A stretch of DNA of 64,000 bases from a virus. The stretch's first letter is position 1. Each line of letters begins with the position of its first letter. Positions 32,314-52,004 of the stretch are shown here, one piece after another. The stretch spans positions 1 to 64,000 of the IMG/VR virus record IMGVR_UViG_3300046002_008717. The stretch is one strand, 5' to 3'. A program made the position numbers and the translations under genes. The notes beneath the pieces are model-generated. The model made no database searches. It had not been told where the DNA came from and saw nothing but the letters and a program-made list of their open reading frames with translations.

Positions 32314-35300
32314 ATGAATTTTAATAATTCACTTATATTTCCTCCAAAACTTTTTCTTGGTATAATATTACCAAATCAAACTACAGTGGTTGGAACTTAT
32401 TCAGATCCAACTAATCCGTATAACGGCTTTCCGTATAGATGGAGCATAGTTTTAAATATAGATATACAACAACATTCTAATCCAAATACACCAACCCCTT
32501 ATTTATATGATGTAAATGATATAATAGTTGGTATGTGGATAGGACAAACTAATGGTAATTCATTTAAAATAGTTGGAATAACATCAACTCTTGGATCAGA
32601 AGAAATAACATTAATAATAGAGGATACTGATTTTATGAATCTGATATCATCACCAGATCAAATAGGAACCAATGGGCCATTAGAATCGTCACCTACAGTA
32701 ATTTTTAATTTAAATGATTTAGGTGAACCTATATTTGATCCATTACAGAATCAAAGCAGTCAATTACCAATTTATAGTTATTGGGTAAATGATTTAGAAT
32801 CAAGATTTAGATTTAGAAATTATTATCAAAGTTTTTTCTATATAGATCCAGGTAGCAATACTAGTGGAATCACTGGTGGAGATCCAGTATATCTTTCTCC
32901 CGAATCTACCTTTATAAAAGTGGATTCAACATCACAAGATGATATAGATAAGCTTTTTGGTTATGCATCTAGCGGAAATCTTCCATATCCAGGACATCTT
33001 ACAGTTACCCCATCCGGTAGATATATGAGTGATCTTGTAGATCTAATAGGACCAACTGGTAGCGTATTATATTTAGATACTACTATAACAGGAACTAATA
33101 ATTTAAATTATATCAAACCTGCAACCGGACCAATTAAACCAGTTTATATAAAAATAGATAACAATAGTGCTATACTTATAAGTTCATCAAGTTCTGCATC
33201 AAGCGGGGGTGGAGTAGGAAGCGGTACATCAGGAACTAGTGGATCAAGTACAGGTATACCTGGAGATAATGGTACATCAGGGACAAGTGGAACTTCTGGT
33301 TTATCTGGAACTAGGGGAACCTCAGGTTCATCGGGTTCATCAGGAACTAGCGGAACTAAAGGAACCTCAGGTTCATCAGGAACCTCAGGTATAAATGGAA
33401 CTAATGGTTTATCCGGAACTAGTGGTATAAATGGAACAAGCGGAACTTCTGGAACTAGTGGTATAAACGGAACTAGCGGAACTGCAGGAACTAGCGGTAA
33501 TGATGGAACTAGTGGAACTTCTGGTTTATCAGGAACTAGCGGTATAAGCGGAACTTCAGGAACTAGTGGAGATTCGGGTTCATCTGGAACTTCTGGAACT
33601 AGTGGAGATTCGGGTTCATCTGGAACTTCTGGAACTAGTGGAACTTCTGGAACTAGTGGAACTTCTGGTGCTACCGGAACTAGTGGAACTTCTGGTGCTA
33701 CCGGAACTAGTGGAACTTCTGGTAATAACGGAACTAGTGGAACTTCGGGTTCATCAGGAACTAGCGGAACTTCTGGTAATAACGGAACTAGTGGAACCTC
33801 GGGTTCATCAGGAACTAGCGGAACTTCTGGTAATAACGGAACTAGTGGAACTTCTGGTAATAACGGAACTAGTGGAACTTCCGGTATAAACGGAACTTCA
33901 GGAACTAGTGGTGTTAATGGAACAAGTGGAACTTCTGGTTCATCCGGAACTAGCGGTAATAACGGAACTAATGGAACTTCTGGTTCATCAGGAACCTCCG
34001 GTGTTAACGGAACTAGTGGAACTTCAGGAACAAGTGGTAATAACGGAACAAGTGGAACTTCAGGAACTAGTGGTTCATCAGGAACTAGCGGAACTTCAGG
34101 AACTAGTGGTTCATCAGGAACTAGTGGAACTTCAGGAATTAGTGGTTCATCAGGAACTAGTGGAACTTCTGGAATTAGTGGTTCATCAGGAACTAGTGGT
34201 AATAATGGAACAAACGGTCTTTCTGGTGATAAATATGCAACTATATCAACTACAACATTAACCATAGCTACCGGAGTTCAATCATTAACAGTAGGATTAG
34301 GATTAGCATATACAACAGGACAATCATTAGTTATTGCAAATACTTCAATTAATAGAATGGAGGGTACTGTTGGAACATACAATCCTATTGATGGGGCATT
34401 AGTGGGGAACATTACTGTTATTTTTGGATCAGGAACATTTTCAGCATGGGAAGTCAATCTAGGAGGTGCACAGGGTGCAGACGGAAGTAGCGGTATTTCT
34501 GGTTCATCCGGAACTAGTGGAACTTCAGGCACTTCCGGTGCTAACGGAACTAGTGGAACTTCGGGTTCATCTGGAACTAGTGGAACTTCAGGCACTTCTG
34601 GTGCTAATGGAACTAGTGGAACTTCAGGCACTTCTGGTGCTAATGGAACTAGTGGAACTTCAGGCACTTCTGGTGCTAACGGAACTAGTGGAACTTCTGG
34701 CTCAGCAGGAACTTCTGGTTCAGCAGGTTCAGCAGGAACTTCTGGTTCAGCAGGTTCATCAGGAACTTCTGGTTCAGCAGGTTCATCTGGAACTTCTGGT
34801 TCATCTGGAACTTCTGGTTCATCTGGTTCTAGTGGTTCATCAGGTTCATCTGGAACTTCTGGTTCATCTGGAACTTCTGGTTCATCTGGTACTAGTGGTT
34901 CATCAGGTTCATCAGGTTCATCAGGTTCATCAGGTTCATCAGGAACTTCAGGAACTTCTGGTACTAGTGGAACATCAGGTTCGTCTGGTACTAGTGGAAC
35001 ATCACCTATTTTTCAACGTATTACAGTTGCCGATGCTGATTATACAATAAGTGGTAGTAATAATCAAATAATAGTATACACTTCAATTACAGCAAGAAGA
35101 GTAGTTACTTTGCCTGCTATCTCTACTATTGGCCAAGTTATACAAATTTTAGATGAGAGTGGTTCATTTAATACAACTAAAAGAGTTAGAGTAGAAAGAG
35201 CAGGTGCAGATACAATAGAAGGTGATAGCTATAATATACAGATATCACCATATTCTTCTGCTAGCTATACAAGTGATGGAGTTAGTAGATGGAGTATTTC

Positions 35301-50022: not shown

Positions 50023-52004
50023 ATATTCTCTTTTAACATCCCATTATTATAATGATGAGATACTGTTTCATTATTTAGTTTATAATTTTCTTTTTTGTAT
50101 ACATTTTCTCCATCATAGAATAATACATTGATATCAATTGGTATATTTCTATATTCAATTTTTTTAACATATTCCCTAGTTTCTGATATTTTTATTCTTT
50201 CGTTAAATATTTTAATCTCATTCTCTAATATGGTAATTTCTAATTCCTTTTCATCTAAATTGTAAGTAAAAAAATAAAAAGCCCATATATTAGTCGAATC
50301 ATTTACCGGTATAAGCGAAAAATATTCAGAATTGGACGAAACTCCTAATCCAGAATTTGGAAGAATAGTTCTTTCGTCGTTATTGACGATCCAAAGTAAT
50401 TCTTCATCCTTTAAAATCCTCATGAAATAATCTTCTAAAAAATTCTGACATCCCAATTCAATACATAGGTTATTAAATATATCGCCATCTCTAATATCAC
50501 TAAATATTTCTAGAAAATAGTTGGTCCTAAATACCATCGATGTCGTTTCTATGCCTTCACCTAAATCCGTATTCATTTTGGATAAACAACATTTCCAATT
50601 ATTATCTAATTTATCAAAATACCCATTAATTAATTCAATATCAAGATCATTTAAAATCACATCATAGGTTACTGTCATAACTTTAGATATTCCTAATTGT
50701 TTAGCTAGCAGCATACCATTATAAAGATTTATAAAAGCAGCTAATGATTGATTCGGTTTCTTTGAGTTGTTTATATTAATTTCTGCTCTATACTTTTCAG
50801 TATTGCTATAGAATTTATTATAATATGAATTTGGAATCATCATATTATTTTTATCGTATATGTAATAATCTACCTCTTTTTGTATTTCCAACGAAACCGG
50901 GTAATGAGAAACCAATATAATTTTTCTATTTAGTTTTTTAAAACTATTGATGCAATCGAGAGTTAAATTTTTTCTTTTTATCGTATCAGGATACGTAGTT
51001 ATTATAATCCCCTCTGATTCTTCTATATTTTCGTATGAATCATTTATTTTTTCTGGTTTTATGATTCTTAATAAAATTTCAATATCTTTTTCAATATCAC
51101 CAGTTATGAAACTAATATTTTCATAATTATCATATTTACTACAATACACATCCAAATTATACATTAACATAGGTATTTTATACTCAAGAGCTTCCTTTAA
51201 TGCAATTGGATTCAATTCCTTATTATTTCGATCCCCTTTAGATGCAAAGAAAAATAAATCGCTTGCCTCTATGAACGAAGGTACATCCTTTCTTTCACCC
51301 CATAATATACAATTATCTGGTTTATCATCTAATAATGGCTTCCAGTAACTTTTGAAATTATCTGCTTGGTTTCCTAAAAAATGAAATTTTATTTTATATT
51401 CTTCCAATCTTCTTGCAATTTCAAACACATAGGATTGATTTTTTCTTTCCGTAAATAAACCTACATTCAATACGTGTTTATATGTGGGATCAAATTCTAA
51501 AATTCTTTGATTTTTTTGTTTATCCGGATTTTTATAATCTACTGGATATTCTACTATTTCATAAGGGATATCATATATCGAATATCTGAATCCATTAAAT
51601 GCACTTACGAATATAAATTTATCGGGAAAAAATCTTTTTGATGTTACAGGAAAACTCGAATCGTGAGTAGTTTCTAATATAGTATAGGATCTATCACTTT
51701 TATAAATTAATTTTGTTATATTATCATCCATGAAAAATTCTGGAAATTCCTCCATACTAATCACATCAGGCTTAAATTCATCAATTATATCTAGTAAGCG
51801 ATTCTTATTATCACCAAGTGAATGAAAATTGGATCCCAGTAATTTTTCTACTTGATTACGTTGTATAACAAAAGCAAAACCAAAAAAATCATATTCTACA
51901 CATTTTATAATATAGTTATCATTTAATAACTTTATTTTATTTAGAGTTACTTGAGGGGCACCTCCTGTACTAAGATGAGGAGTTATTACTAATATTTTTT
52001 TCAT
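50019..52004 (-). CDS. GT4-like glycosyltransferase fused to the repeated GT-A-like domain
   Basis: PHLSTGGAPQ, NVGLFTERKNQ, DLFFFAS...ELNPIALKEAL; C-half TTYPDT...VSHYPV...DYYIYDKNN. Confidence 0.8.
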   Translation of the reverse strand: MKKILVITPHLSTGGAPQVTLNKIKLLNDNYIIKCVEYDFFGFAFVIQRNQVEKLLGSNFHSLGDNKNRLLDIIDEFKPDVISMEEFPEFFMDDNITKLIYKSDRSYTILETTHDSSFPVTSKRFFPDKFIFVSAFNGFRYSIYDIPYEIVEYPVDYKNPDKQKNQRILEFDPTYKHVLNVGLFTERKNQSYVFEIARRLEEYKIKFHFLGNQADNFKSYWKPLLDDKPDNCILWGERKDVPSFIEASDLFFFASKGDRNNKELNPIALKEALEYKIPMLMYNLDVYCSKYDNYENISFITGDIEKDIEILLRIIKPEKINDSYENIEESEGIIITTYPDTIKRKNLTLDCINSFKKLNRKIILVSHYPVSLEIQKEVDYYIYDKNNMMIPNSYYNKFYSNTEKYRAEININNSKKPNQSLAAFINLYNGMLLAKQLGISKVMTVTYDVILNDLDIELINGYFDKLDNNWKCCLSKMNTDLGEGIETTSMVFRTNYFLEIFSDIRDGDIFNNLCIELGCQNFLEDYFMRILKDEELLWIVNNDERTILPNSGLGVSSNSEYFSLIPVNDSTNIWAFYFFTYNLDEKELEITILENEIKIFNERIKISETREYVKKIEYRNIPIDINVLFYDGENVYKKENYKLNNETVSHHYNNGMLKENI

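Follow-up and report, generated by a model that had tools for sequence, protein, structure and literature searches.

A probable fibre O-glycosylation system in a large T4-like phage, built on a TibC/AAH-family domain beside collagen-like fibres

We analysed the first 64 kb (64,000 nucleotides, hereafter the window) of the 111.7-kb IMG/VR record IMGVR_UViG_3300046002_008717, in which two genes for long collagen-like fibres, F1 and F2, are met by a convergent operon of six genes ending in a candidate protein O-glycosyltransferase of the TibC/AAH family. The source is a large, uncultured T4-like myovirus; the window has a GC content of about 30%, and CheckV rates the record as 39% complete, which suggests a genome of about 280 kb. 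The fibres and their parts, in amino acids (aa) of each protein and nucleotides (nt) of the window, are as follows.

32314..37131, plus strand: fibre F1, 1605 aa, matching the Collagen family at E=3e-93
F1, ahead of tract 1: N-terminal domain
F1 aa 314-640 (nt 33253-34233): G-X-Y tract 1
F1 aa 639-723: module of 85 aa, in common with F2, between tracts 1 and 2
F1 aa 718-897 (nt 34465-35004): G-X-Y tract 2
F1 aa 898-1311: tail-fibre-like globular domain, matching phrog_5668 (tail fibre, E=2e-13) and phrog_20556 (baseplate)
F1 aa 1312-1506 (nt 36247-36831): G-X-Y tract 3
F1, C-terminal end: domain of 99 aa
38623..42873, plus strand: fibre F2, 1416 aa, matching the Collagen family at E=5e-87
F2, N-terminal end: tail-fibre-like domain, matching phrog_5668
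F2 aa 284-598 (nt 39472-40416): G-X-Y tract 1
F2 aa 676-1002 (nt 40648-41628): G-X-Y tract 2
F2, C-terminal end: domain of 414 aa, matching phrog_13925 at E=9e-30

An earlier note on this DNA had described two Thr/Ser-dominated G-X-Y fibres of 1605 and 1416 aa, and both are present, with 234 triplets in the three tracts of F1 and 214 in the two tracts of F2. The five tracts are uninterrupted Gly-X-Y runs of 60-109 triplets each, and both fibres have the long tracts expected of the collagen repeat family PF01391. GTS is the top triplet (129 in F1 and 129 in F2), followed by GSS, GAN, and GIN; Thr prevails at X and Ser at Y, and the tracts of the two fibres together hold about 700 Ser/Thr residues. 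Proline takes up 3/896 of the X/Y positions, and charged residues are scarce. Triple-helix trimers are usually aided by proline or hydroxyproline or by charge pairs. Given the collagen triple-helix rise of about 0.29 nm per residue, the tracts of F1, if triple-helical, would reach about 200 nm in total and those of F2 about 185 nm. The Ser codons are a mixture of TCN and AGY (in F1, TCA 89, AGT 54, and TCT 49), which indicates that the repeat is selected at the protein level and is not a recent DNA repeat. The 85-aa module is 88% identical between F1 aa 639-723 and F2 aa 597-681 (nt 34228-34482 and 40411-40665), a likeness consistent with module exchange between the two genes. Both fibres belong to the virion module and have domains in common with tail-fibre families. 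Array open reading frames (ORFs) in some relatives exceed 3000 aa and hold 850-956 triplets (L015:11466-21053, L006:11456-20821, and L019:11750-21046); some of them continue past the fetched locus, and as triple helices they would measure roughly 700-800 nm.

Facing the fibres are six minus-strand genes, g6 to g1, running from 52004 to 43592.

43592..44650, minus strand: g1 C-terminal domain (aa 360-711), TibC/AAH family (BAHT), candidate priming protein O-glycosyltransferase
44708..45727, minus strand: g1 N-terminal domain (aa 1-340), GT4 glycosyltransferase of GT-B type, matching Glyco_trans_1_4 at E=8e-13 and Glycos_transf_1 at E=4e-12, candidate first extender
45738..46730, minus strand: g2, 330 aa, with an unnamed GT-A-fold domain at aa 1-234
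46727..48448, minus strand: g3, 573 aa, with an unnamed GT-A-fold domain at aa 1-266 and a faintly GT25-like C-terminal half
48455..48871, minus strand: g4, GNAT N-acetyltransferase, matching Acetyltransf_1 at E=4e-19
48868..50022, minus strand: g5, DegT/PseC-type pyridoxal phosphate-dependent sugar aminotransferase, matching DegT_DnrJ_EryC1 at E=1e-77
50019..52004, minus strand: g6, 661 aa, with an N-terminal GT4 part and a third unnamed GT-A-fold copy at aa 333-592

The convergent six-gene operon of the earlier note is thus borne out, its genes being separated by 4-nt overlaps or gaps of at most 10 nt. We call it an operon from this spacing, since promoter and terminator scans of the convergent junction and the divergent start revealed nothing above chance. 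The note's domain calls held for the GT4 fusions, DegT, and GNAT, whereas its GT25-like call survives only as a faint match in the C-terminal half of g3 (Glyco_transf_25, E=0.042, below the cut-off). The best family match of g5 is PseC, at 210 bits and under the PseC cut-off. The unnamed domain is a true triplication in g2, g3, and g6 (blastp E=1e-5 to 3e-16). Its labelling as GT-A is supported by fold, at a TM-score of about 0.5, but not by sequence: there was no match in Pfam or NCBIfam (for g2 and g3), nor by profile in PDB sequences or Pfam. The model of this domain (pLDDT 80) has a generic GT-A fold, with KdsB, COLGALT1, SpsA, alpha-3-GalT, and RmlA as neighbours (TM 0.45-0.54).

The g1 C-terminal domain is truly homologous to the bacterial autotransporter heptosyltransferases (BAHT), the family of TibC and AAH. 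The TibC/AAH-type assignment had been suggested from short motifs, and the hidden Markov model and structure searches upheld it: the domain scores 280.4 bits against TIGR04414 (cut-off 200), covering model positions 31-373 of 374, and it matches the TibC crystal sequence 4RAP at E=2e-55 over TibC residues 50-381. Its AlphaFold (AF2) model (pLDDT 88, pTM 0.87) has a TM-score of 0.86-0.87 to 4RAP/4RB4, with the GT9 lipopolysaccharide heptosyltransferases such as WaaC as next-best folds (TM 0.4-0.5), and the model shows the N-terminal beta-barrel, the GT-B-like catalytic domain, and the iron-finger insertion of the family. We compared ten functional residues with those of the TibC structure paper (PMC4358343). 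TibC D110, T226, K230, and W305 correspond to D446, T558, K562, and W627 of g1; in TibC, Asp110 is catalytic, Thr226 and Lys230 contact the beta-phosphate, and Trp305 contacts the heptose O4 (PMC4358343). The four cysteines C339, C342, C358, and C370, which form the 1Fe-0S iron finger of TibC (PMC4358343), are all aligned in g1. The SLGD, SSGLSWLAWA, and CHGCWN...WCP...FEC motifs align with TibC functional residues, with SLGD holding Asp110.

The domain is nevertheless not a standard TibC-type enzyme: the family homology stands, but the domain falls in a separate clade without the adenine-contact arginine or the thumb hairpin. Arg286, which contacts adenine N1, is Thr in the window and in 51/56 viral sequences, while it is kept in both classical enzymes and in 46/50 bacterial enzymes outside the clade. 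The thumb region has 17 aa versus 27 in classical enzymes, its tip Phe is replaced by Asn, and no hairpin appears in the model. In TibC, the thumb hairpin (tip Phe265/Val266) links dimers into a dodecamer (PMC4358343); the shortened thumb of the modelled domain may mean that this contact has been lost. There is also no autotransporter in the window to serve as a classical substrate, and the neighbours are G-T-S fibres. Because partner, adenine contact, and thumb all depart from the family pattern, 'autotransporter heptosyltransferase' would be the wrong label for the g1 domain.

The loss of the thumb hairpin and the adenine-contact arginine could also be taken to mean that the domain is no longer catalytic and instead helps in folding, targeting, or assembling the fibres. 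The Burkholderia homologue BimC has been discussed as a targeting factor. We regard such a role as very improbable, in view of the catalytic Asp, Thr226, Lys230, Trp305, and the four Cys, all eight of which are invariant in 57/57 viral sequences, and of the fusion of the domain to other intact-looking transferases and to methyltransferases. The length of the enzyme ORFs varies across loci, with stand-alone forms of about 390 aa at one end and fusions of about 1600 aa at the other. In nearly all lineages, including the Microcystis phage Mel-JY01, the phage LR756501, and five IMG/VR lineages, the TibC-like domain is directly preceded by a fused GT4 domain. These GT4-TibC fusions often also contain FkbM or S-adenosylmethionine methyltransferases and GT25- or GT32-like domains, and relatives of the GT4 part of g6 are present in 78/80 TibC loci. 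The recurrent GT4 and methyltransferase fusions suggest priming followed by extension and methylation.

Searching for viral relatives of the g1 domain gave 166, of which 80 were used for locus counts. The earlier note had linked GTS-array genes to this domain, and across genomes their co-occurrence is far beyond chance, in viruses and also in bacteria. A GTS/GSS array ORF lies within 10 kb of the domain in 52/80 viral loci, or 22/32 clusters at 80% identity, and in those 52 loci it is without exception downstream of the domain and convergent with it, the arrangement seen in the window. When Ser/Thr-rich ORFs of at least 400 aa are included, the count rises to 27/32 clusters, the five misses being short loci. 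Control 20-kb regions from the same genomes, far from the enzyme, had an array in 0/35 cases and a Ser/Thr-rich ORF in 5/35 (Fisher 2e-10 for arrays and 6e-9 for arrays plus Ser/Thr-rich ORFs); as the clusters are related phages, shared gene order inflates this significance. The fibre domains other than collagen are not conserved among enzyme loci. In the converse direction, contigs with (GTS)5-type DNA were sampled without ranking, and the domain was present in 17/36 of those of at least 40 kb and, among these, in 6/9 that are at least 77% complete, against a base rate of 4/50,697 deposited phage records. Among terminase relatives, the enzyme is clade-wide (17/23, and four of four complete genomes, with every contig lacking it being a fragment), so presence or absence there tells us little.

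The association extends to phages of distant lineages, Mel-JY01 (PP395634) and LR756501, whose enzymes are only about 40% identical. Mel-JY01 is a cultured phage with an array frame 1.7 kb upstream of its GT4-TibC fusion; this frame (L001:2-3049, plus strand) encodes 1016 aa with 202 triplets (GTS 77, GSS 57) and 40% Ser+Thr, and is open at the record start. At this frame GenBank has only antisense 'hypothetical' ORFs, and the record therefore probably mis-annotates a collagen-like fibre gene. In the 735-kb phage LR756501, a GTS/GSS ORF lies 3.6 kb from the enzyme. The tracts in the window likewise give rise to spurious long antisense frames (33144-34265, 39441-40448, and 36225-36857, all minus strand) and to spurious frames in other phases, and such frames are a likely cause of mis-annotation as in Mel-JY01.

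Bacterial enzymes show the same partnership. Within the genome collection searched, a G-[ST]-[ST] protein adjoins the enzyme in 14/30 of the closest bacterial homologues versus 1/52 of the more distant ones (Fisher 8e-7), and the single distant case has a GAT/GET-type array. The bacterial array proteins are mostly 207-330 aa long and often lie 90-220 bp from the enzyme, some of them on megabase chromosomal contigs. Chromosomal two-gene cassettes of a TibC-like enzyme and a GSS/GTS/GTT collagen-like protein occur in Arenicellales, Methylococcales, and other Gammaproteobacteria (L358:11169-11789, L362:11220-11840, L363:11249-11875, L367:11163-12056, L399:11181-11825, L359:7240-8229, and L369:8844-9806). 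A phylogeny of 140 domains, with classical plasmid enzymes found beside autotransporters (L423 and L424) as its root, groups all 56 viral sequences with 14/15 array-linked bacterial ones in a single clade (SH-aLRT 100) and leaves the autotransporter-linked enzymes outside it. Array linkage is found for 14/32 bacterial enzymes inside the clade versus 1/50 outside (p=2e-6), and the loss of Arg286 and the shortening of the thumb follow the same clade as the array linkage.

Taken together, these patterns make it probable that the phage encodes a system for O-glycosylating proteins in the cytoplasm, that this system acts on the proline-free Gly-Thr/Ser-Ser tracts of the phage's own F1 and F2, and that the enzyme modifying the fibres represents a new branch within the TibC family. 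The argument is one from comparative genomics throughout, and several observations weigh against it. The linkage is all genomic, much of it from related phages sharing gene order, and three near-complete array-bearing contigs have no enzyme. The 636-kb phage LR756504 (L178) has a stand-alone enzyme and no collagen repeats genome-wide, and the complete genome G028 (319 kb) has two enzyme copies (L205 and L206) and only 11-triplet G-X-Y stretches, about 60-100 kb away. As these two keep the enzyme with no arrays or short ones, the enzyme-array link is strong but not obligatory. In one viral clade, a non-collagen Ser/Thr-rich ORF adjoins the enzyme in place of an array; it is divergent, encodes about 1000-1100 aa, of which 30% are Ser+Thr, and lacks G-X-Y repeats (L029:2942-6145, L030:867-4118, L046:2081-5410, and L058:1123-4062), and may be an alternative acceptor. 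Furthermore, classical BAHTs recognise beta-helical repeats or passengers and not triple helices (PMC4358343). The replacement of Arg286 by Thr and the lack of any heptose pathway gene in the record, which covers 39% of the genome, also make the donor uncertain.

LR756504, G028, the clade with the 30% Ser+Thr ORF, and the substrate preference of classical enzymes are in keeping with an alternative in which the TibC-like enzyme acts on some other virion protein, such as a Ser/Thr-rich or beta-helical fibre or spike, with the arrays as mere frequent neighbours in the fibre module. We judge this unlikely, as it is a G-[TS]-[ST] array in particular that adjoins the enzyme despite unrelated fibre end domains, the bacterial cassettes pair the enzyme with small array proteins at close range, and none of the control regions has an array.

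If the fibres are indeed the acceptors, the TibC-like domain would attach the first sugar, probably a nucleotide-activated heptose, to the hydroxyl groups of Ser, and perhaps also of Thr, in the repeats. The glycan could then be lengthened by both GT4 domains, the fused one in g1 and the second in g6, and by the three GT-A-fold domains. DegT and GNAT may provide an acetamido-deoxy sugar, for which the starting material could be the 4-keto-6-deoxy product of a GDP-mannose dehydratase that the phage encodes in a second cluster, described below. A nucleotide-heptose donor for the g1 domain is plausible, and the lost adenine contact makes the donor's nucleotide uncertain. In the record, at 39% of the genome, there is no homologue of the GmhA, HldE, or kinase families. 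Complete relatives have GmhA-, HldA-, and HldC-like genes that score below family cut-offs and are scattered round the genome: in G026, GmhA-like at 188 bits (118794-119264), HldA-like at 301 bits (39139-40074), and HldC-like at 107 bits (317253-317645), and in G028, GmhA-like at 184 bits (209835-210305) and HldA-like at 315 bits (288795-289718). In G005, an adenylyltransferase-kinase pair is adjacent. These genes hint that relatives of the phage make nucleotide-heptose. The Mel-JY01 ORFs beside the enzyme, including a 'cytidylyltransferase-like' gene, gave no heptose-pathway match.

A second, larger glycan cluster, which the initial reading of the sequence had missed, lies at 9.3-20.2 kb, upstream of the fibres.

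9310..20244: second glycan cluster, whole
9310-10011, minus strand: GT7 glycosyltransferase
Within the cluster: GT11 glycosyltransferase (118 bits), GT2 glycosyltransferase, and FkbM methyltransferase
13633-14985: fusion of a beta-phosphoglucomutase-like HAD protein and a sugar-1-phosphate nucleotidyltransferase
Within the cluster, listed before GT6: further methyltransferase
16798-17529: GT6 glycosyltransferase (108 bits)
17540-19255: fusion of a GT-A domain and a GDP-fucose-synthase-like SDR protein (Fcl, 241 bits)
19261-20244: GDP-mannose 4,6-dehydratase (Gmd, 383 bits)

This cluster probably supplies sugars and extending enzymes, and it could add fucose, other sugars, and methyl caps to the fibre glycan. 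GT7, GT11, and GT6 enzymes together with a GDP-fucose route make fucosylated, histo-blood-group-like glycans in animals and some bacteria. A set of GT2, GT4, GT6, GT7, and GT11 enzymes with a GDP-fucose route is also typical of polysaccharide synthesis, and T-even and other phages glycosylate their DNA, while temperate phages alter O-antigens (summarised in PMC12619734). The two clusters might modify the DNA of the phage, in the manner of T4-type glucosylation, or else the envelope glycans of the host, and so serve restriction evasion or a block on superinfection. None of the 27 proteins examined, those of both clusters included, has a convincing membrane segment, and neither cluster encodes a flippase, polymerase, ligase, or polyprenyl-phosphate transferase. 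The lack of membrane segments argues against a lipid-carrier or periplasmic pathway, and the apparent solubility of the operon proteins fits priming and extension in the cytoplasm. We set aside a host-surface pathway, as neither cluster has a membrane component. The BAHT family, moreover, is known solely for protein O-glycosyltransferases (PMC4358343), and a DNA or envelope target would leave the array linkage unexplained. There is in our view only a small chance that the clusters as a whole act on DNA or the envelope, although some of the upstream-cluster enzymes could yet do so.

Returning to fibre glycosylation, we can only speculate that the triple helix is stabilised or hydrated by the glycans in place of hydroxyproline, the result being a fibre of about 200 nm with a glycan coat. 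A broader and distinctly tentative idea, which we hold to be doubtful, is that the thumb-less branch of TibC enzymes co-evolved with proline-free repeats in phages and bacteria, with dense Ser/Thr O-glycosylation replacing hydroxyproline as the stabiliser. Were this so, there would be glycan-sheathed fibres of about 200 nm here and up to about 800 nm in the relatives with 850-956 triplets.

The predicted system has several precedents, the closest being TibC-TibA and AAH-AIDA-I of E. coli (TIGR04414; PDB 4RAP/4RB4; PMC4358343). The homology covers the whole domain, including the beta-barrel, the GT-B-like core, and the Cys4 iron finger, and the catalytic Asp and the phosphate and heptose contacts are the same. 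TibC and AAH are soluble and cytoplasmic, as the phage enzyme appears to be, with the gene in each case beside that of a repetitive, Ser-rich secreted or structural protein and with many sites per substrate, a multiplicity that is predicted here. The phage enzyme differs in its separate clade (SH-aLRT 100), in the Thr at Arg286, in the shorter thumb, and in being phage-encoded and fused to GT4. Its neighbour is a Gly-Thr-Ser collagen-like fibre, whereas theirs is a beta-helical autotransporter (compare L423 and L424), and the further transferases of the phage imply an oligosaccharide, whereas theirs is a single heptose.

Virion glycosylation itself has been described in mycobacteriophages, whose transferases act in the host cytoplasm on virion proteins of the same phage (Freeman et al. 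2023, PMC10527164, via PMC12619734), as is predicted here. According to the summary in PMC12619734, the glycans there sit at the C-termini of capsid and tail-tube subunits, and neither a BAHT-type enzyme nor a collagen-like acceptor is described. The Bacillus exosporium protein BclA and the fibrils of Mimivirus and chloroviruses (PMC4691112, PMC9614988) resemble the present case in having collagen-like or fibril proteins, heavy O-glycosylation, and enzymes that are encoded nearby or by the virus, a combination that is predicted here. Giant viruses also make their own nucleotide sugars and have a GDP-mannose dehydratase and pairs of sugar aminotransferase and acetyltransferase. The priming enzymes of BclA and the giant viruses are, however, non-homologous to that of the phage, and the settings are eukaryote hosts or spores, not a tailed phage. 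The BclA repeats are Gly-Pro-Thr, and the Mimivirus collagen is modified on hydroxylysine. In the literature searched, whose scope excluded most subscription journals, we found no paper tying TibC/BAHT to phages or to collagen-like proteins.

If the proposed system operates, virion glycosylation would no longer be confined to a few mycobacteriophages but would take in a widespread group of aquatic jumbo and mid-sized phages. The BAHT enzymes, so far known only for virulence adhesins, would gain a second substrate class, collagen-like repeats, along with a distinct subfamily. Glycosylation may also explain how the proline-free Gly-Thr-Ser 'collagens' fold, and a glycan coat on the fibres would matter for the adsorption of phages, for the stability of their particles, and for how they are recognised in natural waters. 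The cultured Mel-JY01 and the bacterial two-gene cassettes make fibre glycosylation directly testable.

The genes flanking the locus are Rad50/gp46-like, gp15-like, an Mtd_N fibre protein, neck-protein-like, and the large terminase, and those with coordinates are listed here together with the gene between the two fibres.

30646-31392: gp15-like gene, matching T4-gp15_tss
31517..32290, plus strand: fibre-type protein of 257 aa with an Mtd_N domain (E=2e-13), immediately 5' of F1
37135..38376, plus strand: virion structural protein of 413 aa between the fibre genes, matching phrog_1645 at E=1.4e-66
52114-57236: neck and terminase genes, with the large terminase at 55416-57236

With a gp15-like gene on one side and neck and terminase genes on the other, the glycosylation and fibre locus is placed in the virion module. 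A megablast of the operon against deposited phages gave no match. The 413-aa structural protein has a faint AC_1 match (E=0.009), which is the sole autotransporter hint in the window. Elsewhere, a 281-aa ORF at 22410-23255 has a weak match to SMODS, a second-messenger nucleotidyltransferase family (E=9e-4, under the family cut-off).

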